Source: a virus
DNA: 64,000 bases
Direction: 5' to 3' (one strand)
UHGV virus genome: UHGV-0066004
Part shown: one piece after another, positions 3,343-38,122 of the stretch
Position numbering within the stretch: position 1 is the stretch's first letter
Layout of the letters: every line of letters starts with the position of its first letter
Made by a program: the position numbers and the translations under genes
Notes under the pieces: model-generated
Told to the model about the DNA's origin: nothing
The model's database searches: none
The model's input: only the letters and a program-made list of their open reading frames with translations

Positions 3343-3418
3343 TGGAGAATCCGAAGGGACTCGAACCCTTATAAACCTGTTTTGCAGACAGGCACATAGC
3401 CATTTCTGTCACGGATTC
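3343..3418 (-). tRNA. tRNA-Cys(GCA)
   Basis: T-arm GGGTTCGAGTCCC, 7-bp acceptor pairing GAATCCG/CGGATTC, anticodon loop CTGCAAA, encoded CCA; hand-folded. Confidence 0.65.
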
Positions 3419-3422
3419 AAAT

Positions 3423-3515
3423 TGGAGGAAGATACCAGACTTGAACTGGTACACCGATTTCTCAGCTACTGGCAGTTTAGCAAACTGCTCCCTTACCTTT
3501 TAGGGTTAATCTTCC
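3423..3515 (-). tRNA. tRNA-Ser(GCT), type II
   Basis: 93 nt, long variable arm, T-arm CCAGTTCAAGTCTGG, acceptor GGAAGAT/ATCTTCC, loop TTGCTAA. Confidence 0.6.
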
Positions 3516-3517
3516 AT

Positions 3518-4252
3518 TTATTTCTGTAATGCGTTCTTCATTTCTGGTGTTGCAATAGTGTCAATTACACCAGTTTTACAAGCATCATCAAACCAGTCTG
3601 GTAAGATACCTGCTAAGAACCCATTGATATTCGTTTTAAGGTACTCTGCAATAAGGGCAGCTTCTTCTTCAATCATCTGCACAACTTCATCTGCATAAGC
3701 TGTAATCTTTGAGATACCTTCATTAATCTTACTGACAGCTTGGTTAGCTAAATCAGAAACAGTATCAAGACCCTTGTCAATAGCGTCTTGTAAGTCACTT
3801 AATACATCGTTAACACTCTCTAGTGTACTGTTAATCGTATCAATAGCTTTTTGACCATATTCTGTAGCAACACCCATAATACCACTGAACGGTGTACAAC
3901 CAACTTGTTCTCCTGCTGCACCCATAACATTGGAATATCCCTTTGCTACCTGCATACGTGATGAAAACTCATCAATAGATTTTTGACCGTAGTCTGTCAG
4001 GGTCTTAGTAGTTGCTGTAGTGCTTGTAAGGCTTGTTGTAAAGCTGTTTAGAAGGACTGTTGTAAGTCCAGCAGCAACAAGCTTATCCTTTACTGTAGGG
4101 TCTGATACAGAGCTAATAGAGCTTACAAGTGATGTAGAGGCAGCTACGGTTCCACCGAGAACTGCTGCACCAGTAATAAGGGGGTTAGAAAACCCTTTAC
4201 CGGTTTTTAAGAGATTGAAAATCTCCTTACCTTGTTCTGTCATCTCTTTCAT
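3518..4252 (-). CDS. Ser/Thr-rich hypothetical protein inside tRNA cluster
   Basis: ORF in track; start trimmed to ATG at 4252 (AAAGGTG SD) because the upstream part overlaps tRNA-Phe. Confidence 0.45.
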   Translation of the reverse strand: MKEMTEQGKEIFNLLKTGKGFSNPLITGAAVLGGTVAASTSLVSSISSVSDPTVKDKLVAAGLTTVLLNSFTTSLTSTTATTKTLTDYGQKSIDEFSSRMQVAKGYSNVMGAAGEQVGCTPFSGIMGVATEYGQKAIDTINSTLESVNDVLSDLQDAIDKGLDTVSDLANQAVSKINEGISKITAYADEVVQMIEEEAALIAEYLKTNINGFLAGILPDWFDDACKTGVIDTIATPEMKNALQK

Positions 4253-4268
4253 TAAGCACCTTTGAAAT

Positions 4269-4345
4269 TGGTAGTCCAGTGGGATTTGAACCCTCTTCTC
4301 ATGTTTTTCAGACACGCGCTTTAACCATATAAGCTACTTGGACTA
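4269..4345 (-). tRNA. tRNA-Phe(GAA)
   Basis: T-arm GGGTTCAAATCCC, acceptor TAGTCCA/TGGACTA, loop CTGAAAA. Confidence 0.6.
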
Positions 4346-4350
4346 TAAAT

Positions 4351-4426
4351 TGGGGTGACCTACGGGATTTGAACCCGTATAGACCATGTTCACAGCATGG
4401 GTCATTACCGTTTATGATAAGGCCAC
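4351..4426 (-). tRNA. tRNA-His(GTG)
   Basis: T-arm ACGGGTTCAAATCCCGT, loop CTGTGAA, encoded CCA. Confidence 0.65.
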
Positions 4427-4457
4427 ATTTAAGGACTCTCGTAAGAATCCTTAGAAG

Positions 4458-4533
4458 TGGCAGCGGCATAAGGATTTGAACCTTAATAAGACAGCTTCAG
4501 AGACTGCTGCATTGCCAGTTATGCTATGCCGCT
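4458..4533 (-). tRNA. tRNA-Gln(CTG)
   Basis: T-arm TAAGGTTCAAATCCTTA, acceptor AGCGGCA/TGCCGCT, loop CTCTGAA. Confidence 0.55.
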
Positions 4534-4538
4534 AAATT

Positions 4539-4617
4539 TGGTACTCCATATCGGATTCGAACCGATACATAACACAGATTTTAAGTCTGGCCTCTCTGCC
4601 AATTGGAGTAATGGAGC
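4539..4617 (-). tRNA. tRNA-Leu-like (anticodon TAA?), atypical
   Basis: Perfect T-arm ATCGGTTCGAATCCGAT, discriminator A, Leu-type D-loop AATTGGCAGAG, loop CTTAAAA, but no long variable arm in my fold. Confidence 0.35.
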
Positions 4618-4619
4618 AT

Positions 4620-4695
4620 TGGCGGGGGATGTTGGAATTGAACCAACTTCTTCGATTTCAAAGACCGAGGTTTTAACCTTGTAAACTAATCCCCT
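4620..4695 (-). tRNA. tRNA-Gln(TTG)
   Basis: T-arm GTTGGTTCAATTCCAAC, loop CTTTGAA, encoded CCA. Confidence 0.55.
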
Positions 4696-4703
4696 TTAAA
4701 TCT

Positions 4704-5261
4704 TTACTTTCTCAGTGGATGAATAAAGAATGCCAACATAACTCTTTCCCTTGAGAATGCTCTTTCTTCTGGGACAACACTTTTTAGTTTCCATCCAATA
4801 TAAATTCTCCAGTAAAATTGTTTACCAAAGATTTTAATTGATGGGATAAAAGCGAATAATCCCCAAGCATTACTGTTCCACATTAGGAGATAACCTGTCT
4901 GATTATCTTCAGGGTCAGAACTTACGTTGATATTACCTTTCCACTTAGTAACATCTTTTACATCTCTTCCTAATACATGGTAAGAGAAGTTATAAGCTTT
5001 GTTTCTCCAGAGCCATCCGACTCTTTGCATGTAGACACCTAGTTTACCAATCCATCTGATATTAGCCCATCTTTTAACGTGACCTTCATCACCATCAATT
5101 GGGTTGTCATATGTCTCCATCCATCTGAACCCGAAAGGTAAGTGTCCTTTCTTCTCACTGTAGAATGGAACTACGAAAGGTGCTAAGATAACTGCTAGTA
5201 TTGCTGCAAGTGGTTCTAGCAAAGCTAAGAAAATCCATGAAGCATATTTTAAGTATCTCAT
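4704..5261 (-). CDS. membrane protein (hydrophobic N-terminus), function unknown
   Basis: 185-aa ORF between tRNA sub-clusters; N-terminal TM-like segment. Confidence 0.5.
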   Translation of the reverse strand: MRYLKYASWIFLALLEPLAAILAVILAPFVVPFYSEKKGHLPFGFRWMETYDNPIDGDEGHVKRWANIRWIGKLGVYMQRVGWLWRNKAYNFSYHVLGRDVKDVTKWKGNINVSSDPEDNQTGYLLMWNSNAWGLFAFIPSIKIFGKQFYWRIYIGWKLKSVVPEERAFSRERVMLAFFIHPLRK

Positions 5262-5500
5262 TGTCTAACCCTCGTAAGGAGGTAAGCATTATTACTTGTT
5301 TCTGAGCTTTCTGGTAACATTGTCTCAAAATTGACACTTTTAAGTTGTCTTCCACCAAAGCAATGACCAATAAATCTTTCTACTTTTATTGGGTCGCATT
5401 CCCATCCGACTTTTAAGAAAATGTGGGTATCTATAGTGGGAACCCTTACAAACTCAATACTATTGGGATTTTCATGTTCAACGACGATTAATGTTTGCAT
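5258..5500 (-). CDS. hypothetical protein
   Basis: 80-aa ORF with ATGA-type overlap onto downstream gene. Confidence 0.4.
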   Translation of the reverse strand: MQTLIVVEHENPNSIEFVRVPTIDTHIFLKVGWECDPIKVERFIGHCFGGRQLKSVNFETMLPESSETSNNAYLLTRVRQ

Positions 5501-5518
5501 AAATTCCTCTTGCTTATC

Positions 5519-5594
5519 TGGCGCAGGATAAGGGATTCGAACCCCTATTAACAGTTTCGTAGACTGTTGCTCTATCCATTTGAACTAATCCTGC
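5519..5594 (-). tRNA. tRNA-Arg(ACG)
   Basis: T-arm GGGGTTCGAATCCCT, acceptor GCAGGAT/ATCCTGC, loop CTACGAA. Confidence 0.65.
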
Positions 5595-5599
5595 AAAAT

Positions 5600-5677
5600 T
5601 GGTGTTCCAAGACGGATTCGAACCGTCACTAATACAAGGTTTGAGCTTGCATCCTCTGCCAATTGGGATACTGGAAC
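5600..5677 (-). tRNA. tRNA-Leu-like (anticodon CAA?), atypical
   Basis: T-arm GACGGTTCGAATCCGTC, D-loop CAATTGGCAGAG, loop CTCAAAC, discriminator A; short variable arm. Confidence 0.35.
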
Positions 5678-5678
5678 A

Positions 5679-5753
5679 TGGTACTCACTAAAGGACTTGA
5701 ACCTTTTTCTTCATCTTGTAAGGGTGGTGTTTTACCATATAAACTAAGCGAGT
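5679..5753 (-). tRNA. tRNA-like gene with disrupted anticodon stem (possible pseudo-tRNA)
   Basis: Good acceptor, D-arm GTTTATATGGTAAAAC and T-arm AAAGGTTCAAGTCCTTT, but I cannot pair an anticodon stem. Confidence 0.3.
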
Positions 5754-5848
5754 GTGAAAGAGGTCTGAAGTTGTGCCGCTAACTCAACTCCGTGGAATTT
5801 GTTACGGTCTTCAGTTGACACCAGCGGTCTTTCACTTGACCTCTGAAT

Positions 5849-5925
5849 TGGTGCTGCTCACAGGACTCGAACCCGCATTTCCATCCTTACAAGGGATGTG
5901 TAATAGCCAATTATACGAAAGCAGC
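5849..5925 (-). tRNA. tRNA-Thr(TGT)
   Basis: T-arm GCGGGTTCGAGTCCTGT, anticodon stem CATCC/GGATG, loop CTTGTAA. Confidence 0.65.
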
Positions 5926-5932
5926 ATTAATT

Positions 5933-6007
5933 TGGAGCATCCAGAGGGAATCGAACCCTCAACCTCAGTTTGGAAGACTGTAATTTTCCCGTTTAAACTA
6001 TGGATGC
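5933..6007 (-). tRNA. tRNA-Gly(TCC)
   Basis: T-arm GAGGGTTCGATTCCCTC, acceptor GCATCCA/TGGATGC, loop CTTCCAA. Confidence 0.6.
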
Positions 6008-6013
6008 ACTAAT

Positions 6014-6089
6014 TGGTGGAGAAGCAGGGAATTGAACCCTGTACTTAAGTTTGCAAAACTTATGTTTTAACCATGTAAACTACATCCCC
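6014..6089 (-). tRNA. tRNA-Ala(TGC)
   Basis: T-arm CAGGGTTCAATTCCCTG, anticodon stem TAAGT/ACTTA, loop TTTGCAA. Confidence 0.6.
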
Positions 6090-6095
6090 AATGTA

Positions 6096-6171
6096 TGGTA
6101 CAGGTGGAGGGAATTGAACCCATCGTCTTACTGATTAAGAGTCAGCCGCATAACCATTTTGCTACACCTGC
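6096..6171 (-). tRNA. tRNA-Lys(CTT)
   Basis: T-arm GGGTTCAATTCCC, loop CTCTTAA; paralogous to the Lys(TTT) gene at 7323. Confidence 0.55.
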
Positions 6172-6178
6172 ATTAATT

Positions 6179-6256
6179 TGGTAGGAGACAAGGGATTCGA
6201 ACCCTCAAACACCAACTTCTAAGGATGGTAGGTTTACCAATTACCGTCAATCTCCC
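6179..6256 (-). tRNA. tRNA-Leu-like (anticodon TAG?), atypical
   Basis: T-arm GAGGGTTCGAATCCCTT, D-loop TAATTGGTAAA, loop CTTAGAA, discriminator A; short variable arm. Confidence 0.35.
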
Positions 6257-6512
6257 ATTAAATCTTTTTAGAGAACTTCTAAGAACCTAAGCAACAAGGT
6301 TCCACAACAAGCTGTAATAACCTTAGAAGCCCTCTAAAAAGACCTAAAAAGGTCTTTGCATAGTCTTGTTTAATCCGGTGACTAGAACCTTTGGAGAGCT
6401 TGATATTATCTCTTCTCCGTGACACATACTAGGTGCTTTACTGTGCTTGTACGACAATACACGAGGGATACCAAAGCAACATCCGAATGAAGCTTGGCTT
6501 TAAACCTTATTA

Positions 6513-6602
6513 GGCGGTAAGTAAAGGAGTCGAACCCTCACCGTATCTCTACAGTGGCAACTGTTTTCAAGACAGTTTGGCTACCATTAGCCGCTACCTA
6601 CC
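6513..6602 (-). tRNA. tRNA-Ser(TGA), type II
   Basis: 90 nt, T-arm GAGGGTTCGACTCC, anticodon stem ACTGT/ACAGT, loop CTTGAAA, long variable arm. Confidence 0.6.
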
Positions 6603-6615
6603 CCTAATAAGACTT

Positions 6616-6698
6616 TGGCATGGGACGGAGGAGTTGAACCCCTTTGAAACGGTTTTGGAGGCCGTTGCTCATGCCTTAGAGTCTTAACATCGTCCCAT
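6616..6698 (-). tRNA. tRNA-like, 83 nt, anticodon unresolved
   Basis: Perfect acceptor ATGGGAC/GTCCCAT and T-arm GGGGTTCAACTCC; internal AACGG/CCGTT hairpin with 9-nt loop; cannot assign anticodon. Confidence 0.3.
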
Positions 6699-6840
6699 AT
6701 TATAATTCGAAGCTTACCGTATTATCTCAACACTGTAAAGCCCCTTCTCAGATTATTTACATGTTCTGGAAAACATGAGATACAGACCACCTCCCTACAG
6801 GAAGACCCGCTTAGGTCGTCTAAGTAATCTGCTAACTAAT

Positions 6841-6917
6841 TGGCACACCCTACAGGATTCGAACCTGTAACTAACGATTTAGAAGACCGTTGCTCTATCC
6901 AATTGAACTAAGGGTGC
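6841..6917 (-). tRNA. tRNA-Arg(TCT)
   Basis: T-arm ACAGGTTCGAATCCTGT, loop CTTCTAA, encoded CCA. Confidence 0.65.
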
Positions 6918-7164
6918 ATTAATCTTTAAAGACTCTCTTAGAAAGCCCTTAAAGATGCCCACCTTATTAATCATACCGTGGGCTAGTACGCCAAATTCTT
7001 TGATGAGGGATTGGAAGACCTCACTGGTGTTTAGCCTATCAAGCTACTGCCAGAAAAACATTGTCGTTTGCATTTATTTTAAATTTGCAAAATAGACGCT
7101 ACGCAACGAAAACTAAGGTTACTATAAAGTAGTCACATCTCAATGTCAACAACTTTATTGAAAT

Positions 7165-7240
7165 TGGTACTGGTAGGTGGAATCGAACCACCGATGTTCC
7201 CTTATCAGGGGAGTGTTATAACCTTCTTAACTATACCAGC
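7165..7240 (-). tRNA. tRNA-Ile(GAT)
   Basis: T-arm GGTGGTTCGATTCCACC, loop CTGATAA. Confidence 0.6.
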
Positions 7241-7241
7241 T

Positions 7242-7318
7242 TGGAGGTTCAGATGGGAATCGAACCCACATTCATAGGGCTTATGAGACCCTTGCATTAC
7301 CTTATCTGCGACTGAACC
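7242..7318 (-). tRNA. tRNA-Met(CAT), elongator-like
   Basis: T-arm TGGGTTCGATTCCCA, loop CTCATAA, G1-C72 paired. Confidence 0.6.
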
Positions 7319-7322
7319 ATAT

Positions 7323-7398
7323 TGGTAGAAGTGGAGGGATTCGAACCCATCGCCTGTCAGATTAAAAGTCTGCTGCATCACCATTCTGCTACACTTCC
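7323..7398 (-). tRNA. tRNA-Lys(TTT)
   Basis: T-arm GGGTTCGAATCCC, loop CTTTTAA. Confidence 0.55.
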
Positions 7399-7403
7399 AT
7401 TAA

Positions 7404-7546
7404 ATTATCTTTGTAGATAAGCTACCCAGACTTGCTTAAGGTCTGTAGCGATGTGCCTTGTTGGGTTTAAATCTAGAATTTACCCTTTCACCCTTTGTGG
7501 TCGCATACTCACAGGTAAGCTTAATAACTTATCTACAAAGATAATT
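7404..7546. repeat. pair of inverted 18-bp hairpin elements (TTATCTTTGTAGATAA / TTATCTACAAAGATAA) about 107 bp apart
   Basis: Exact reverse-complement arms at 7404-7421 and 7529-7546, each arm itself a 5-bp stem hairpin. Confidence 0.7.
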
Positions 7547-7589
7547 ACCAGACCGTTGTTTATCATCTTAAGTGCTACCATTACACCAA

Positions 7590-7680
7590 CTCGACATCTG
7601 CCGAGTGAAGGAATCGAACCTTCGCCTTTTCTTTACCGGAGAAATAGATTGTTTAAGTTTTGCTGTAAACGGTCTTCTGT
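7590..7680 (-). pseudogene. tRNA fragment or pseudo-tRNA (T-arm only)
   Basis: Perfect T-arm GAAGGTTCGATTCCTTC with acceptor-like 3' strand but no matching 5' acceptor strand and no CCA. Confidence 0.3.
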
Positions 7681-7826
7681 AAATTTGTTGAGCCAGACCA
7701 AGTTTAAATTTTCAAAATTAAATTGGCTTGAAATTTCATACGTTCTTGCTGTATTTGGTCTTCTGCTCCTTTAAAGGATACTCGTAAGGACCCTTTAAGG
7801 GAGGGGCTAAATAGCCCTCTCAAAAT

Positions 7827-7904
7827 TGGCGGTTACGAAGGGATTTGAACCCTCATCATCTCCCGTGACAGGGGAGTATTTTAACCAAATTAAACTACAT
7901 AACC
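7827..7904 (-). tRNA. tRNA-Asp(GTC)
   Basis: T-arm GAGGGTTCAAATCCCTT, anticodon stem CTCCC/GGGAG, loop CTGTCAC. Confidence 0.65.
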
Positions 7905-7909
7905 TTTAT

Positions 7910-7997
7910 TGGTGTGCCGTGTAGGAGTCGAACCTACCGAGTCTCAATGACAAGGGATTTACAGTCCCCACCGCTACCATCTACGGGATAACGACAC
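7910..7997 (-). tRNA. tRNA-Tyr(GTA), type II
   Basis: 88 nt, T-arm GTAGGTTCGACTCCTAC, loop CTGTAAA, long variable arm. Confidence 0.6.
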
Positions 7998-8006
7998 ATT
8001 TAAATT

Positions 8007-8083
8007 TGGCGGTTAGTCAGGGATTCGAACCCTGTGCCATTCGCTTAACAGGCGACCGCACATACCTTATATGCTTCCTAACC
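8007..8083 (-). tRNA. tRNA-Asn(GTT)
   Basis: T-arm CAGGGTTCGAATCCCTG, loop CTGTTAA. Confidence 0.55.
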
Positions 8084-8160
8084 TTAATACATTGCCAGAC
8101 CGTGTTTTTTCTTTTATCCGCAAAAAGTATTTTGTTGCTGAATACGGTCTTCTGCAAAAT

Positions 8161-8237
8161 TGGAGGCGGGTGCAGGAGTCGAACCTGCCGATACCATGCT
8201 AATGAGACATGTGAGACGCCCTTTCTCTATACCCGCA
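8161..8237 (-). tRNA. tRNA with CAT anticodon (Met, fMet or Ile2)
   Basis: T-arm GCAGGTTCGACTCCTGC, loop CTCATTA, unpaired 1-72 position. Confidence 0.45.
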
Positions 8238-8327
8238 ATTCTCAATGACCAGACCAAATATCTTCTTTGTCCGATTTCGTGTCAGATGAGTAGATTAAGT
8301 TTGCTGTAATTGGTCTTCTGTCAAAAC

Positions 8328-8405
8328 TGGCGTTCCAGAAGGGATTTGAACCCTCAGATATCCACTTTGAAAGAGTGGTGACTTTACCATTTTGTCTACT
8401 GGAAC
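8328..8405 (-). tRNA. tRNA-Glu(TTC)
   Basis: T-arm GAGGGTTCAAATCCCTT, anticodon stem CCACT/AGTGG, loop CTTTCAA. Confidence 0.65.
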
Positions 8406-8412
8406 ATTAATT

Positions 8413-8489
8413 TGGTCTCTGTTGGAGGACTTGAACCTCCGGCCTTACCGCCCCAAACGGAACGCTCTACCAAGCTGAGCTAAACAGAG
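8413..8489 (-). tRNA. tRNA-Pro(TGG)
   Basis: Canonical D-arm GCTCAGCTTGGTAGAGC, T-arm GGAGGTTCAAGTCCTCC, loop TTTGGGG. Confidence 0.6.
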
Positions 8490-25850: not shown

Positions 25851-26039
25851 TAGATAACCACGTTCAAAGAGTCAATAAAAATTTTAAAAATATTTTTGGC
25901 AAAACTGTAATGAAACGGGTGCGCACGACTACCACAAAACAGAACGCAAATCAAGAATTATTTTTCAATCCGCTACAAATTTTTCTCTTGACTTTTGGGG
26001 AGAGGAAGAGGGGGAGAGGGGTTGGGCTGGCTGTCTATA

Positions 26040-26297: not shown

Positions 26298-27083
26298 TTA
26301 GTTCTTTGCGTCTAAGAAGGTAACTTCTGGTGAAGAGAAGATTGCCTCGATATCCTCATCAGTTCTTGCATAGATATAAGCTTCTGCATCACTACCAAAT
26401 GTTACAGCAATTCTGTGATTGCTCTTTGACAGGTGGGTAACTAGAGCGTTACTTAGAGACATCTTTTCAACCGGAGGGTTACTTTGATGTATCTTACCTT
26501 TTCTTCGTCTGAAGAGGGTAACTGCGTTATCTGTGAACACTGCTACACCTGCAAAGTATTCTGGTTCACAGTAGTTCTTCCAACCTGAGCGTAACTTGTG
26601 GTACATCTCGCCTTCATAGACATACAGATAAACATCTACACTCTTCATCACCTGATTGATGATAACTGTGATGGCTTGAGGGTCAAGTCCACCGATACCT
26701 GCACCAATCATAGGTAAACCAACTTTCTTCAACTGATTAACTTCACAGTATCTGTTAAGCTGTTTCAAAGATGACTCTAAAGCACTGTATCGGGCATCTT
26801 TACCAGTCTTAAGCTGAGTGTAAAGGTTAGCTATACGACCTTGTTTTAAGCGTGCTACAGAGAAATTACCTAGTAAATTCTCACAGGGTTTGTGACCTAT
26901 ACCACCTGCATAGAGATAAACTTCTGTATCGGTCTCATATGCTTTTGGGTAAAGTTTAGAAATCTTGTCAGCGATACCTGCGCCCATTAGGTTCATGCAG
27001 TTACAACCATGACCAATGATGTCAAACTTACCTTTATCAAATGCAGCAAAGATATCACCATTGATGATTTTTACAATACCCAT
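26298..27083 (-). CDS. macro-domain protein (ADP-ribose binding or hydrolase) with C-terminal extension
   Basis: N-terminal NGDIF...DIIGHGCNCMNLMGAGIADKI and LPMIGAGIGGL match macro-domain glycine-rich motifs. Confidence 0.6.
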   Translation of the reverse strand: MGIVKIINGDIFAAFDKGKFDIIGHGCNCMNLMGAGIADKISKLYPKAYETDTEVYLYAGGIGHKPCENLLGNFSVARLKQGRIANLYTQLKTGKDARYSALESSLKQLNRYCEVNQLKKVGLPMIGAGIGGLDPQAITVIINQVMKSVDVYLYVYEGEMYHKLRSGWKNYCEPEYFAGVAVFTDNAVTLFRRRKGKIHQSNPPVEKMSLSNALVTHLSKSNHRIAVTFGSDAEAYIYARTDEDIEAIFSSPEVTFLDAKN

Positions 27084-29111: not shown

Positions 29112-29807
29112 TCAATGTTTAACTAACATGGTTTTGATGTGTGGAAGTATTCTGTTCACCTTCTGCACATTCTTCTCTGTGTCTTCTATAAAACATACTA
29201 TATTAAAGTAAGGCAGAATACAAGACTGAATCATCCTCACTTTCAAACTTTCTGCACTTATAGAGTTAGTCCCAAAACCACGCATAAAAAGCATGTAGTC
29301 ATGCTCTGTGTTATGCCTTAAAAACATCTCAGTAGGTATTCTCTGAGATTCACCTCTCGCTGTCAAGAGTCCAATGGCAGCATGATTAGCAATTGCATCA
29401 ATAATACTAAAGACATACGTTGGTTTTGCTCTTACAGAGTCAAGAAGATTAGTGTACTGTGAGAATGACCCATCAGTCAATTCCGTTGAGCAATCTTCGT
29501 GATTAAAATTTGTAAGAACACCATCAATATCTGCTAAGATGAGGTTACCTTTTTCTACAAGGTCTTTATTGACTATGACTAAGCTATCACGACTTACACC
29601 TATAGTTTGTCCAGTCTCTTTATCTACAACATTCACAATTGGCTCTGATGTGTGGAACTCTTCGAGTGAACATACAACTTCTCTTGCAGTGTCTTCAAAA
29701 TCCCTACACTGTTCTGGAGTCCATACACAGGAATCAAGACCTAACTCATGAGGATGTAAGTCGTAAGCATGACACAGTACTTCATCAGACTTTTTTAATT
29801 TTTTCAT
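29112..29807 (-). CDS. HAD-superfamily hydrolase (putative nucleotidase or phosphatase)
   Basis: LILADIDGVLTNF matches HAD motif I (DxDGV). Confidence 0.45.
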   Translation of the reverse strand: MKKLKKSDEVLCHAYDLHPHELGLDSCVWTPEQCRDFEDTAREVVCSLEEFHTSEPIVNVVDKETGQTIGVSRDSLVIVNKDLVEKGNLILADIDGVLTNFNHEDCSTELTDGSFSQYTNLLDSVRAKPTYVFSIIDAIANHAAIGLLTARGESQRIPTEMFLRHNTEHDYMLFMRGFGTNSISAESLKVRMIQSCILPYFNIVCFIEDTEKNVQKVNRILPHIKTMLVKH

Positions 29808-34194: not shown

Positions 34195-34511
34195 GACTCA
34201 CCTCTCATATTCTTGTAAAGGATAAAGCTTCTGTCATGGACGATACTTGTAGACACTGCAAAGTTACTTTCAAGCATCTGTTTGTTTGGATTGTAGAAGC
34301 TTTCTTTAAACTCGTCAAGTGCAAATTGGTGATGTTGTGGAAGACCTTTTACACAGATTTTTATTGTGATTGCTGCTGCAACCTTACCCGTCAGTTCTTC
34401 TTTAGCTGCTACTAAAATTTTGTTAAGGAATTTATGACCATTTTCAGGTTTCTTAATGTTTTCCCAACGTTCTTCCAAGACAACGTTGATGTTCATCTCT
34501 TTGATTTTCAT
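34176..34511 (-). CDS. hypothetical protein
   Basis: 111-aa ORF. Confidence 0.45.
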   Translation of the reverse strand: MKIKEMNINVVLEERWENIKKPENGHKFLNKILVAAKEELTGKVAAAITIKICVKGLPQHHQFALDEFKESFYNPNKQMLESNFAVSTSIVHDRSFILYKNMRGESCKHIG

Positions 34512-34526
34512 AGTTTTCTCCAGAAA

Positions 34527-34551
34527 TTAAAAAGGCTCCCGTAGGAGCCTC
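34527..34551 (-). terminator. intrinsic terminator after NAMPT-family gene
   Basis: GGCTCC-CGUA-GGAGCC stem followed by U-run on minus strand. Confidence 0.6.
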
Positions 34552-34564
34552 TTATCATATACTT

Positions 34565-36346
34565 TTAAAGCTGCTTGTCAATATTATTTCGAATATCACC
34601 AAGAGTTGTGTAACCGAACTGCTCAGAGTCACTAAAGACTAAACGTAAAGCACAGGCTGGGTGGTCAAGTACATCTGCAAAACTCTGGAATCCATATCCA
34701 TCTACAGCTTTCAGCTTATCACCGTCCCACATAGGTGCTACACCACCAAAGGCAGACTTCTTAACACCACTATCTGTTTTAGGGTCTTTTGCAAGCATAA
34801 TCTCTTTACCACCAATGCTTGCAAGAGTTGCTTTGACAGCAAATGCAAAGGTGTCACGAGTCATGTACTGGTAAGTGTAGGAGCCTACACCAAACACTAC
34901 GTTAGAGCTTGCAAAACCCATTCCATACAGACGCTTCAGGATTTCGTTTGCACGTTCCAGCGTGATAGAATCACCATAGATAAGGCCGATATGCTCATCC
35001 AGTACCTTAAACCCTTTAGAGTTAATAGTTCCCCCAAAGATGTTGTACAGTGTCTTAATAGCTCCATCAATCTCAGCTACAGGACGTGTTACAACGTTTG
35101 CAGAACCAACCATATAAGCATCCTTTAACATCACCGTATCAGCAGCTTCAAAGTCTTCTCTGTCAACAACCATTTCGTAGCCTTCTGACAGTAGCCATCC
35201 AGCAATACCATAGCTGATGTTTTCAAGCTTCATGTTCAGAATAGCATTCAACATTGTGTCACTGGCTTCCAGCTTGCTTAGGTGCTTATAATAAGCCTTC
35301 TTAGCACACTCTAAGTGGATTGCTTTATAACCTGTGACAATATGTACAGGGTCTCCAGAGTCAGGACGAATTACCAGTTTGCCATCACGTTCCATAATTT
35401 CTTTACGGAGTGCTGGTAAGATTTCTGACACAGTTCTCCAGAAGTTATAAGTATCTGAAACAATACTTGCAATACCAGTTGGGTAAGTTTCTGTTAAGAA
35501 ACGACGGAAGGTTTGTAACTCACCTTTAAAGCGTCTTTCTTCTTCAATCAATTCATTACCACCTTCCCAAGCAATGTTTGCACACATTACAGAGTGCTCA
35601 GTGGCTGGTACAGAACTACCAATATCAGAGATTGGGTAAGACTGACCATAGATTCGTTTAGCCGTGTATACAGCAGGGAAGCTATCAGTTCCTTTAAAGC
35701 TGGTTAAGTGACCTACAGCGTTAAATGCGTCATCAGTAAAGCCGGACATACCACGCATAGCAAAGTCATGGCACTGATAAGGCAAATGTAAGTCGTTGTC
35801 ACAAGTAAGGTCAGACCACTTCTTACAGATACGTTTGTAGTGCAATGCAATAGTCGCAATGGTACAAGCCTTCCAAATTTCAGCAGAGAAAGCATCTTCC
35901 AGATAACCTGCTACCCAATGGAAACCTGAAACAGTGTTCTGGAAGACAATCATTGGGACACGCATAGGAACAACTGTACCTTCTTCTACAGCGTATACTT
36001 CAACTGGTAGATAACCTAAGTCGTGAAGTGATTCCCAATGCTCTCGACCGATAGCATCTTTACCCAGAACACCATTCATGACTTCTAAGATTTCGTCAAC
36101 TGCTTCTTTTTTATCACGTTCAAAGAAAGTGGCGTTCCAGTGGTCTATCAGGTAATCTTTAACGAAACGTTGAATACCAAAAGCTACTACACCATCAATT
36201 GCTAAGGGGCTGTTAAACCATTTGTCACTACGTGGTGTCAGGTTGAACATCAAGTATTCTGTTGCACTAGGGTACTGGTAAACATGACCAGATTTGTAAG
36301 CATCTGCGTTTAAACCTGCTGGTACTGCGTAAAGCGATTTAGTCAT
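34565..36346 (-). CDS. nicotinamide phosphoribosyltransferase-family enzyme (NadV or Namat-like)
   Basis: 593 aa; N-terminal NADAYKSGH and overall NAPRTase-fold features typical of NAMPT. Confidence 0.7.
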   Translation of the reverse strand: MTKSLYAVPAGLNADAYKSGHVYQYPSATEYLMFNLTPRSDKWFNSPLAIDGVVAFGIQRFVKDYLIDHWNATFFERDKKEAVDEILEVMNGVLGKDAIGREHWESLHDLGYLPVEVYAVEEGTVVPMRVPMIVFQNTVSGFHWVAGYLEDAFSAEIWKACTIATIALHYKRICKKWSDLTCDNDLHLPYQCHDFAMRGMSGFTDDAFNAVGHLTSFKGTDSFPAVYTAKRIYGQSYPISDIGSSVPATEHSVMCANIAWEGGNELIEEERRFKGELQTFRRFLTETYPTGIASIVSDTYNFWRTVSEILPALRKEIMERDGKLVIRPDSGDPVHIVTGYKAIHLECAKKAYYKHLSKLEASDTMLNAILNMKLENISYGIAGWLLSEGYEMVVDREDFEAADTVMLKDAYMVGSANVVTRPVAEIDGAIKTLYNIFGGTINSKGFKVLDEHIGLIYGDSITLERANEILKRLYGMGFASSNVVFGVGSYTYQYMTRDTFAFAVKATLASIGGKEIMLAKDPKTDSGVKKSAFGGVAPMWDGDKLKAVDGYGFQSFADVLDHPACALRLVFSDSEQFGYTTLGDIRNNIDKQL

Positions 36347-36391
36347 CTTTTAATCTCTCTCAAAATGGGGCTTTCAAGCCCCTATAAAGTT

Positions 36392-37288
36392 TCAATCAAT
36401 GGTTGCTACAGTAACTTGGGCGTAATGTGTTAAGCCACGGTCTTTAGCTTCACCTAAAGTGTTTGTAGTGTAGATATGGTCAATACCGTTGTCAAGTAAG
36501 TTTTCAACACCTTTAGAGAAAATACCATGAGTTACATAGAGTTCCACACGTTTTGCACCTGCTTCACGTAGGTGTTTAGCTGCCTCTACGAAGGTTCGAC
36601 CACCATCACAGATATCATCAAGAATCATGACAGTTTTATCGGTCAAATCAACATCGTCAAGGATTCGCATACCAGTGATTTCTCCAGTCTTAAGATTGCG
36701 CACCTTAGACATTGTGATATACGGTTTATCCACCTCTTTAGCGGTATCTTCAGTCTTCTTAGCTGCACCTGCATCTGGGGCTACCAAGAAATCAATGCGT
36801 GGGTCACTTGCAAAGTGTACTGCCACATCTTTTTGCTTCATGCTTTGAAAGCACTTAAATAAGTTTTCTGCAACATTACTGTGAGGGTCAAGAGCACATA
36901 CTGCATCAAAACCCATTGCATTAACTAGGTTGGCAAAGACTTTCAGTGCTGCTGCATCACCTTTGAACATGTGGCGGTCATATCGAGCATTTGGTAAGAA
37001 CCCGAAAACAACGGTTTTCATCGCTGATTTCTGGGGAACAAGACTGTCAACGGCATCCTTAGCCAAAGCTAATGCAAACAGTGTATCTTTGTCATATCCC
37101 TGCACAGTAAGTATAACATTGTCAATCTTACCAGCATTACGCTCAGTAAACTTAACAAAATCTTCAGAGAAGTTTCCACCAATTTCTCCAGATGGGAATT
37201 GAATGATATTAAATTTTTCTGTGTGGAAGAATTTCTCTTGTGCGGTGACGACGGCTTCAATAACAGTTTTCATAGTTTTCTCTCTCAA
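36392..37288 (-). CDS. ribose-phosphate pyrophosphokinase-family enzyme (Prs or Adps-like)
   Basis: PRTase-type nucleotide-binding motif VMILDDICDGGRT, DPHS resembling Prs DLHA; divergent from canonical DDxxDTxGT. Confidence 0.7.
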   Translation of the reverse strand: MREKTMKTVIEAVVTAQEKFFHTEKFNIIQFPSGEIGGNFSEDFVKFTERNAGKIDNVILTVQGYDKDTLFALALAKDAVDSLVPQKSAMKTVVFGFLPNARYDRHMFKGDAAALKVFANLVNAMGFDAVCALDPHSNVAENLFKCFQSMKQKDVAVHFASDPRIDFLVAPDAGAAKKTEDTAKEVDKPYITMSKVRNLKTGEITGMRILDDVDLTDKTVMILDDICDGGRTFVEAAKHLREAGAKRVELYVTHGIFSKGVENLLDNGIDHIYTTNTLGEAKDRGLTHYAQVTVATID

Positions 37289-37563
37289 TCAAAAGTTACG
37301 TTTGTTACTGCCATTGCAGATTTGCATTTTGCAGGGTCTACAACGTGATAAAGTACACTACAGTTACCTGTGCTGTCTGGTACAGGCTTTACCCATTGCT
37401 GCTTTATAGTTGGCTCTCCTAAGTCTTTGTAAGAACCATCTGTAAAGTTGTTTACCATCTCAAGTGCAATTGGTTCTGGAACATGACCACGTATCATGTA
37501 CATTTCACAACCATTACCGCCTTCACTGACTAATGGTAAAATCTCCCACTTCTCTTTAGCCAT
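37285..37563 (-). CDS. hypothetical protein
   Basis: ORF in track. Confidence 0.45.
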   Translation of the reverse strand: MAKEKWEILPLVSEGGNGCEMYMIRGHVPEPIALEMVNNFTDGSYKDLGEPTIKQQWVKPVPDSTGNCSVLYHVVDPAKCKSAMAVTNVTFD

Positions 37564-38071
37564 TGTAAGTTGCCCTATAAACTGTCTCGAACTTCAACAG
37601 GAGAGATATTGCCAAATCTGTATAGTTGTTGTCAAGCACATCTGGCATATTATTTTTGATATATTTCTCTTGCTCTTCATAGGTCATCTTAGGTGTGCTT
37701 AGAAGATTACCCCCTTGCTTCTGGTTATCAAGTTTAGTTTGGATAAACCAGTTTGCACAGTGATGCTCACCACCCTTTGTAACAGGCTTGTGGTGGCCTA
37801 ATGTAAATGTTTGCTTACCTGTATACCTGCAAAGATTGTTCAGTGTTGCAATAGTGTTCTTCACAACACACCATTCATACAGGTTATCTATTGTGTAGTG
37901 TGGGTAATAACGGACAAGTGCTCTTTCACGGAAGTTATCACGATTCCAAAGAACCATGTGATTCGAGTTAGAAGGGTCGTATTGGTGGGAGTCAATGAAC
38001 TCTTGACGTTCCTCAAAGCTGAGTCTTAGAACTGACATTGCAGCCGAACGTTTCAGGTTTGACAGATACAT
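37556..38071 (-). CDS. possible HNH-fold nuclease
   Basis: LGHHKPVTKGGEHHCANW resembles HNH core (HH...GG...N); weak. Confidence 0.35.
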   Translation of the reverse strand: MYLSNLKRSAAMSVLRLSFEERQEFIDSHQYDPSNSNHMVLWNRDNFRERALVRYYPHYTIDNLYEWCVVKNTIATLNNLCRYTGKQTFTLGHHKPVTKGGEHHCANWFIQTKLDNQKQGGNLLSTPKMTYEEQEKYIKNNMPDVLDNNYTDLAISLLLKFETVYRATYNG

Positions 38072-38122
38072 TTTATCTCCAAAATAAAAAGGGAACCTTT
38101 ACAGTCCCCTTATAGTATCTGT

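Follow-up and report, generated by a model that had tools for sequence, protein, structure and literature searches.

A Felixounavirus adps-namat gene pair is a near-identical copy of the published NARP1 operon of phage Bas63

Does the adjacent pair of Prs-family and Nampt-family genes in this window, the 64,000 nucleotides of viral DNA presented as UHGV-0066004, rebuild NAD+ from the products of host defences, or does it serve a classical salvage route? The window derives from a Felixounavirus, and we place at about 0.94 the probability that the pair encodes NARP1 (NAD+ reconstitution pathway 1) in this phage. In this pathway, a defence system (for example SIR2-HerA, DSR, SEFIR or type I Thoeris) would cleave NAD+ to ADP-ribose and nicotinamide; Adps, a Prs-family pyrophosphokinase, would use ATP to pyrophosphorylate ADP-ribose at its ribose C1'', forming ADPR-pyrophosphate (ADPR-PP); and Namat, which joins a Nampt-like core to an adenine-binding clamp, would have nicotinamide displace the pyrophosphate to yield NAD+ directly. 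The restored NAD+ would make phage replication possible. In classical salvage, by comparison, the Prs-like enzyme would make PRPP from ribose-5-phosphate, the Nampt-like enzyme would make NMN, and host NadR or PncC would complete NAD+, the effect being a general boost to nucleotide and NAD+ supply and not the recycling of defence products.

Both genes are intact and lie on the minus strand, with adps (positions 36392 to 37273) first and namat (positions 34565 to 36346; 593 amino acids [aa] from an ATG) 45 nt further 3' on the coding strand, confirming the predicted order of a 593-aa Nampt-family gene directly downstream of a Prs-family gene. The open reading frame (ORF) list does contain the 298-aa Prs-like frame of the original prediction, which begins at a TTG (36392 to 37288, five residues longer) sharing bases with the stop codon of the preceding ORF, but a shorter product is likelier: a Shine-Dalgarno-like run (GAGAGAG) precedes the ATG at 37273, and the equivalent ATG is the annotated start of the 293-aa Bas63 orthologue, so we favour a protein of 293 aa. 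The family assignments of both ORFs are far beyond chance, with Pfam matches to PF04095 for the 593-aa ORF (7.4e-35) and to PF14572/PF00156 for adps (about 1e-10 to 1e-12), NCBIfam matches to TIGR01251 for adps (3.4e-40) and to NF006629 for namat (1.5e-139), and PHROG matches of the pair to phrog_619 (5e-99) and phrog_448 (2.7e-200). The GC content of both full-length ORFs is at the local level, terminator-like hairpins flank the block that carries them, and the pair is kept in 259 phage records, nearly all Felixounavirus-like. The gene layout that defines NARP1 (adjacent, co-oriented PF14572 and PF04095/PF18127 genes in a phage genome, adps first) is found here, with the short spacer and shared strand noted above. 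The pair sits beside a nucleotide-metabolism block (NrdA/B and NrdD/G), a setting that would also suit classical salvage.

The pair is already known, as a near-identical copy of a published NARP1 operon. The DNA is 96.8% identical over the whole query to phage JohannRWettstein (Bas63), with which it has in common the genus, the gene order and the neighbours (gp77-gp78-adps-namat, then rIIA and rIIB); in Bas63 the namat terminator is followed by gp81, a 114-aa gene that the window lacks. Adps matches Bas63 gp79 at 290 of 293 residues (99.0%) and Namat matches gp80 at 582 of 593 (98.1%). The 14 substitutions (3 in Adps and 11 in Namat) all spare the residues that act in catalysis or contact ligands, and the two phages agree at every functional position. 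It was in the operon of Bas63 genes 79-80 that NARP1 (Adps plus Namat) was first found and put to genetic test (Osterman et al., bioRxiv 10.1101/2024.02.11.579819). Without these genes, plating on SIR2-HerA cells falls about 20-fold, ADPR-PP (m/z 720.010) appears only when wild-type Bas63 and the defence system are combined, and NAD+ rescue was shown for the operon (bioRxiv 10.1101/2024.02.11.579819). By its likeness to the Bas63 operon, the pair predicts that the window phage would escape NAD+-depleting defence.

These published data also largely refute the classical PRPP/NMN route that the original prediction had retained as its alternative. Bas63 counter-defence still works in a host with a double deletion of pncC and nadR (bioRxiv 10.1101/2024.02.11.579819), so salvage through NMN is excluded in that phage, and the compound detected was ADPR-PP. 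The Bas63 Adps protein purified poorly (bioRxiv 10.1101/2024.02.11.579819), and the in vitro substrate specificities of the window proteins would follow by homology from those of Bacillus phage SPbetaL1 (31% identity for Adps and 48% for Namat). SPbetaL1 Adps converts ADPR and ATP to ADPR-PP and gives no product in a Prs-type assay, and SPbetaL1 Namat supplied with both donors makes NAD+ only (bioRxiv 10.1101/2024.02.11.579819), both results running against classical salvage. When ADPR-PP is withheld, SPbetaL1 Namat can make NMN from PRPP (PMC12774641), an activity that speaks for salvage, leaves room for it as a secondary role and counts as a point against the NARP1 reading.

Cellular Prs and Nampt/NadV share folds and catalytic machinery with the window proteins, which match the same Pfam models and TIGR01251. 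The adps product passes TIGR01251, a broad subfamily model, with 137.8 bits against a cutoff of 113, whereas it lies far under the cutoffs of all NCBIfam Prs equivalog models (the best being NF002095, at 112.4 versus 296 bits). The namat product passes the equivalog model NF006629 ("nicotinate phosphoribosyltransferase") at 465.8 versus 405 bits, which at face value argues for a conventional enzyme and against NARP1. Database names point the same way as these HMM matches and favour classical salvage: annotated records among the best 25 matches call the genes "ribose-phosphate pyrophosphokinase" and "nicotinamide (or nicotinate) phosphoribosyltransferase." Adps is 37% identical to its River4 orthologue, and its 31% identity to the assayed SPbetaL1 enzyme barely exceeds the 26% it shares with E. 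coli Prs, a further point against the NARP1 reading. By sequence, window Adps is a member of the phage Adps clade, apart from cellular Prs; this membership is trivial given the 98 to 99% identity to the type proteins, and Bas63 gp79 was itself a query sequence for the clade (bioRxiv 10.1101/2024.02.11.579819).

The ATP-binding and catalytic residues common to Adps and Prs are retained in the window protein. R97, D99, R100, H131, D167, D219 and D220 all occur unchanged in E. coli Prs, and K190 aligns with the catalytic K162 of SPbetaL1 (equivalent to B. subtilis Prs K197), which was mutated in SPbetaL1 and is needed for Adps activity. The altered ribose-5-phosphate loop to which the original prediction drew attention is real (DDICDGGRT, positions 36593 to 36619, minus strand) and departs from the canonical Prs pattern DD-x-x-D-T-x-G-T, as represented by DDMIDTGGT in E. 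coli. The alignment gives DDLSSFGGT for SPbetaL1 and DDISDGGAS for River4, so the loop varies among Adps proteins and is not a fixed, diagnostic signature of them. What these loops have in common is the loss of the Thr that follows the third Asp, a loss that stands against the Prs-like enzyme of classical salvage.

Among solved structures, Namat is closest to SPbetaL1 Namat (9W5W/9W5X; E = 1e-128, 433 bits), with Xcc Nampt (6e-52, 180 bits) and human NAMPT (about 1e-39, about 140 bits) far behind; the second-closest solved relative is PDB 9KE8. Identity is 41% to the River4 orthologue. SPbetaL1 shares with the window the Adps-then-Namat order, the Adps catalytic Lys and the Namat catalytic core (9W5X, 9W5W, PMC12774641), the last comprising F195, R198, D221, H251, R327 and D329 in the window protein, by reference to F189, R192, D215, the catalytic His, R306 and D308 in SPbetaL1. 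The NAD+-contacting residues of 9W5W all map to window Namat: the equivalent positions are D15, Y17, those six core residues, G458 and D459, followed by G488, S489, Y490, Y494, T496, R497 and D498.

All of the residue signatures set out in the Namat crystal-structure paper (PMC12774641) occur in window Namat. The selectivity-clamp helix (SCH) reads GSYTYQYMTRD (residues 488 to 498; positions 34853 to 34885, minus strand), in which Met takes the place of the usual Asn or Val at phi3; the corresponding sequences are GSFTYQYNTRD in SPbetaL1 and GAQTYQRNTRD in 9KE8. Xcc Nampt lacks the motif, and this cellular enzyme has GGALLQKVDRD where Namat carries aromatic adenine-stacking residues. In the selectivity-clamp loop (SCL), adenine is stacked either by an Arg in the third position or by the residue that comes next after a Lys or Tyr. 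SPbetaL1 has R40, whereas the window has PRSDKWF (positions 36215 to 36235, minus strand), with K42 as the third loop residue and W43 next to it. W43 is predicted to stack on adenine: in Namat proteins with Lys as the third loop residue, Bas63 included, stacking falls to the fourth, an arrangement that rests on an AlphaFold3 model (PMC12774641). This adenine clamp, which Nampt lacks, is a further mark against classical salvage.

Felixounavirus Namat also contains an 88-aa insertion (residues 340 to 427; positions 35066 to 35329, minus strand) that is absent from SPbetaL1 Namat and has a shorter counterpart at this point in River4 Namat. A Pfam search with it returned no match, and 5 of the 11 Namat differences from Bas63 lie within it. 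Together with a further insertion of roughly 15 aa, it accounts for the length of window Namat (593 aa, versus 491 aa in SPbetaL1). These two insertions also weigh against the NARP1 reading. With 98 to 99% identity to gp79 and gp80 and all of the tested residue hallmarks in place, the prediction that the pair is a NARP1-type NAD+ reconstitution system is upheld.

The operon appears to be part of a four-gene block bounded by hairpins. Twelve nucleotides past the namat stop, an intrinsic-terminator-like hairpin with a T-run (positions 34530 to 34553, minus strand; 10-bp stem with 5 G-C pairs; -17.4 kcal/mol and z = -2.7 over a 56-nt stretch) likely ends the transcription unit. Upstream, a second terminator-like hairpin with a T-run (positions 38089 to 38111, minus strand; -14.1 kcal/mol, z = -2.3) is overlapped on its upstream side by a weak sigma-70-like match (38140-38112); both are consensus matches only. 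The spacer between adps and namat holds a hairpin, GGGGCUUGAAAGCCCC, followed by AUUUUG (positions 36367 to 36382, minus strand; -13.8 kcal/mol and z = -3.0 over a 56-nt stretch); it fails a terminator scan because its T-run is too short, and it could serve in weak or partial termination, in processing or in stability. The first gene after the upstream hairpin encodes a 171-aa orthologue of Bas63 gp77 (positions 37556 to 38071, minus strand; phrog_3500, 2.9e-92) with a weak resemblance to HNH endonucleases (phrog_2214 HNH, 9e-6) and nothing significant in a Pfam search. Next comes a 92-aa orthologue of gp78 (positions 37285 to 37563, minus strand; phrog_4726), probably cotranscribed with adps, since its stop codon runs into the TTG of that gene. 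A role for this ORF as a general NARP1 accessory was ruled out, its homologues being confined to Felixounavirus-like genomes (231 records).

NARP2, a pairing of Nampt with a bifunctional Nmnat/Nudix enzyme in Vibrio phage KVP40, likewise works against NAD+ depletion with an enzyme of the Nampt family. NARP2 proceeds from PRPP via NMN, and its Nampt belongs to a clade of phages without Adps, whereas the window has an adjacent Adps and a clamped Namat and so falls outside that definition, which also calls for a phage Nmnat; none was found in the Bas63 annotation between record positions 26000 and 87100.

The original prediction added a macro-domain protein (26298-27083) to the ADP-ribose-handling capacity of the phage. 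The ORF and its domain are real: the ORF list gives a 261-aa frame on the minus strand, orthologous to Bas63 gp95, with a Pfam Macro match (3.9e-7) at residues 25 to 138. It stands apart from the operon, about 7.5 kb (14 genes) further downstream, and two published activities are candidates for its function. An AlphaFold2 model built on a 30-sequence alignment (single-sequence pLDDT, 32) opens with a macro domain resembling Poa1p, DarG and TARG1 (about residues 1 to 157) and adds a confidently modelled beta-rich C-terminal domain of roughly 100 aa. The PHROG family of this protein (phrog_335) contains both Adpp, the NARP1-associated ADPR-1''-phosphate phosphatase, and AdfM, the T4 anti-DarT factor, and its macro domain is homologous both to the Poa1p-like Adpp and to T4 Tk.4, which has a DarG-like macro fold. 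Pairwise identities, shared indels and a neighbor-joining tree (bootstrap 175/300) were used to compare the Adpp-like and AdfM-like assignments, and these sequence and fold comparisons did not separate Adpp from DarG- or AdfM-like activity. The protein resembles T4 AdfM no less closely than Adpp, and at 261 aa it departs from the single domain of about 155 aa that marks AdfM.

A link between the macro protein and NARP1 is possible. In NARP1-AP (Adps-Adpp-Namat; Vibrio phage Gary and relatives), Adps and Namat are related to those of the window and the macro protein is of the same PHROG family, but the macro gene has to be no more than two genes away from the NARP1 operon, and Felixounaviruses are missing from Table S1 of that paper (bioRxiv 10.64898/2026.01.28.702374); the window ORF exceeds this distance, carries the extra C-terminal domain and lacks the GGDW tryptophan. 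It is conceivable, though unlikely, that Felixounaviruses and their Ounavirinae relatives have a split NARP1-AP, in which the unlinked macro protein would turn ADPR-1''-phosphate, the product of NAD+ phosphorolysis by RES-type (aRES) defences, into ADP-ribose for Adps and Namat, the beta-rich domain being a new accessory module of the macro enzyme. If so, aRES resistance would be present in phages left uncounted by the published plus-or-minus-two-gene survey. There is a substantial chance, somewhat short of even, that the macro ORF is unrelated to the pair and contributes nothing to NAD+ reconstitution, acting instead in AdfM-like DNA de-ADP-ribosylation (DarT type) or as an RNA-repair accessory with the nearby polynucleotide kinase.

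Two other readings concern the pair itself. The first, which we consider rather improbable, keeps NARP1 as the main role and adds that, when defence and ADPR-PP are absent, Namat would use host PRPP to make NMN and so provide a modest increase in NAD+. The NMN-forming activity of SPbetaL1 Namat is about half that of human Nampt and is retained in clamp mutants (PMC12774641), and the catalytic core is fully conserved in window Namat; on the other side, this route would require host NadR or PncC, and the portion of the Bas63 study consulted reports no deletion phenotype on defence-free cells (bioRxiv 10.1101/2024.02.11.579819). Classical salvage alone, despite the gene names, the profile matches and the neighboring nucleotide-metabolism block, is very hard to reconcile with the Bas63 genetics, the SPbetaL1 assays and the clamp, and we regard it as highly improbable. 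As a separate matter, a need for NAD+ imposed by an NAD+-dependent DNA ligase was ruled out, the phage ligase matching the ATP-dependent family.

For the NARP1 pair, the presence, integrity, order and orthology of the genes and the conservation of their catalytic and specificity residues are direct observations. They bring little new biology, amounting to residue-level confirmation that this phage has an apparently functional version of a counter-defence operon proven by experiment. Because namat passes the NF006629 equivalog cutoff, automated annotation keeps hiding NARP1 in such genomes. Felixounaviruses are common candidates for biocontrol and therapy directed at Salmonella and E. coli and, since they carry NARP1, they are predicted to escape NAD+-depleting defences of the SIR2, TIR and SEFIR types.

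The original prediction of adjacent Prs-family and Nampt-family genes holds: a Prs-like ORF (36392..37288) and a Nampt-like ORF (34565..36346; 593 amino acids [aa]) lie on the minus strand, the latter 45 nucleotides (nt) downstream on the coding strand, and both family assignments, judged by sequence, are unambiguous. Translation of the Prs-like gene, adps, from a TTG that shares sequence with the stop codon of the ORF before it would yield 298 aa. The purine run GAGAGAG lies ahead of both the Nampt-like ATG and an alternative adps start, the ATG at 37273. The ortholog in Escherichia phage JohannRWettstein (BASEL phage Bas63) is annotated from this latter ATG, making a 293-aa product more likely. 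The G+C content of the locus (0.41) is the same as that of the remainder of the window.

NARP1 was defined starting from Bas63 genes 79-80, which are exactly this operon (bioRxiv 10.1101/2024.02.11.579819). The ADP-ribose pyrophosphokinase (Adps) is identical to gp79 at 290 of 293 positions and the nicotinamide ADP-ribose transferase (Namat) to gp80 at 582 of 593, making the operon the ortholog of that pair and supporting the proposed NARP1-type function. Deletion of the Bas63 operon reduces plaque formation approximately 20-fold on SIR2-HerA cells, NAD+ is rescued by wild-type Bas63 only, and ADPR-pyrophosphate (m/z 720.010) is seen only with wild-type phage in combination with the defense system (bioRxiv 10.1101/2024.02.11.579819). 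The counterdefense effect is retained when the host carries neither pncC nor nadR, ruling out an NMN-based route (bioRxiv 10.1101/2024.02.11.579819). Since Bas63 Adps purified poorly, homologs from Bacillus phage SPbetaL1 were used in vitro, where they convert ADPR and ATP to ADPR-PP, and ADPR-PP and nicotinamide to NAD+ (bioRxiv 10.1101/2024.02.11.579819). These homologs have 31% (Adps) and 48% (Namat) identity to the window proteins.

It is possible that Namat has a secondary, NMN-forming activity when ADPR-PP is not present. Classical PRPP/NMN salvage by the pair, the alternative offered in the original prediction, has database names as its only basis and conflicts with both the genetic and the metabolomic results for Bas63 (bioRxiv 10.1101/2024.02.11.579819). 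Among the 25 best phage matches, annotated records label the pair Prs and Nampt/NAPRT, and the NCBIfam equivalog NF006629 ("nicotinate phosphoribosyltransferase") passes its curated cutoff on Namat (465.8 versus 405 bits), such that NARP1 looks to be systematically misannotated. The DNA ligase of this phage is of the ATP-dependent type, so a ligase does not account for its NAD+ requirement.

Within Adps, the residues for ATP binding and catalysis held in common with E. coli Prs are conserved (R97, D99, R100, H131, D167, D219, and D220), and K190 aligns with K162 of SPbetaL1 Adps, mutation of which abolishes activity (bioRxiv 10.1101/2024.02.11.579819). The altered loop DDICDGGRT (36593-36619, minus strand) was correctly observed but is not usable as a signature, as it varies among three Adps proteins: DDICDGGRT in the window and Bas63, DDLSSFGGT in SPbetaL1, and DDISDGGAS in Vibrio phage River4; the E. 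coli Prs loop reads DDMIDTGGT. The change common to the three is loss of the Thr after the third Asp. In Prs structures, the loop is the binding site for the 5-phosphate of ribose-5-phosphate, and we reasonably infer that its opening would accommodate the ADP moiety. A PDB search returned no Adps structure.

Among solved structures, those closest to Namat are the crystal structures of its SPbetaL1 homolog, 9W5W and 9W5X (E = 1e-128, 433 bits), compared with 180 bits for Xanthomonas Nampt and about 140 for human NAMPT. When the NAD+-contacting residues given in PMC12774641 are carried over by alignment, their equivalents are D15, Y17, K42, F195, A196, R198, D221, A248, R327, D329, G458, D459, S460, G488, S489, Y490, Y494, T496, R497, and D498; H251 falls within the conserved ATEHS segment, the expected place of the catalytic histidine. 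Xanthomonas Nampt has GGALLQKVDRD at the position of the Namat clamp helix (GSYTYQYMTRD), and the variable clamp loop, K42-W43, matches the "Lys then stacking residue" arrangement described for Bas63 Namat (PMC12774641). The second-closest solved relative, 9KE8/9KEO (352 bits), possibly a NARP2-type phage Nampt, has the clamp helix GAQTYQRNTRD, with no aromatic at positions 3 and 7 (compared with Namat residues 486-498). Relative to the crystallized SPbetaL1 protein, Namat carries insertions of 88 aa (residues 340-427; 35066-35329, minus strand) and approximately 15 aa (about residues 259-273; about 35530-35570, minus strand); River4 Namat has a shorter insertion at the 88-aa site, and the word "insertion" is absent from the Namat structure paper (PMC12774641). 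The 3 Adps and 11 Namat differences from Bas63, 5 of the latter within the 88-aa insertion, leave untouched the functional positions tested in both enzymes.

Two minus-strand terminator-like hairpins with T-runs, one upstream (38111-38089) and the other 12 nt past the Namat stop codon (34553-34530), enclose four genes: a 171-aa ORF with weak HNH resemblance, a 92-aa ORF with a stop codon overlapping the TTG of adps, adps, and namat. The 92-aa ORF is confined to Felixounavirus-like genomes and so does not belong to NARP1 in general. Between adps and namat, the spacer contains a G+C-rich hairpin (36382-36367, minus strand) followed by AUUUUG; the folding energy of the 56-nt stretch is -13.8 kcal/mol (z = -3.0). 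Speculatively, the hairpin could attenuate transcription or stabilize the transcript. An identical ribosome-binding motif, TTGAGAGAGA, precedes adps and namat, and together with the hairpin it could permit differential expression of the two enzymes. Promoter-like matches showed no enrichment over shuffled sequences (19 found versus 13.8 +/- 3.6 expected).

Matches to the 2,724-bp region come from 259 phage records, nearly all of them FelixO1-like (Escherichia, Salmonella, Shigella, and Citrobacter phages, or those named Felixounavirus), the best at 97.9% identity. Around the locus, gene order is collinear with Bas63 from NrdA/B, NrdD/G, small ORFs, gp77, and gp78 through gp79 and gp80 and onward to rIIA, rIIB, polynucleotide kinase, spanins, and a "putative phosphatase." The site directly downstream of NARP1 is a variable slot: gp81 (114 aa), which follows the namat terminator in Bas63, is missing through an indel of ~340 bp at about 34509-34520, and tblastn of the whole window recovered no trace of it. 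An array of 26 tRNA genes (3343-8489, minus strand), including two each for Met, Gln, Lys, Arg, and Ser and three for Leu, has a similar counterpart at the collinear position in Bas63.

The predicted macro-domain ORF (26298-27083, minus strand) is also real, although unlinked to NARP1, and encodes a two-domain protein (whole-model pLDDT 91, pTM 0.90). Its C-terminal domain (residues about 158-261) is confidently modeled as beta-rich, with six predicted strands and a short helix, has no Pfam or PDB profile match, and is confined to an Ounavirinae-type two-domain subfamily with GGLD-x in place of the GGDW/GGNW loop of the family. A metagenomic Felixounavirus contig, L012, shares 94 to 99% identity with the window across Namat, rIIA, rIIB, gp86, Pnk, and gp88 and 84% over the portion of Adps present, but its macro protein (L012 10001-10780) is only 41% identical; by these comparisons, the macro gene seems to have undergone an allele swap, with the rest of the backbone conserved. 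The ORF at 29112-29807 (minus strand), which separates NARP1 from the macro gene, is the collinear counterpart of the "polynucleotide kinase" of Bas63, and its syntenic equivalents in two distant contigs, L010 and L011, have weak HAD_PNKP matches. Because Poa1p-type macro enzymes also clear the ADPR-1''-phosphate made in RNA repair, a role for the macro protein in RNA repair is, by analogy, a possibility.

The original prediction correctly recognized a system that has already been characterized, carried here by a phage from the genus of the type example. What novelty remains falls outside the operon, with the two-domain macro protein, which is not linked to it.
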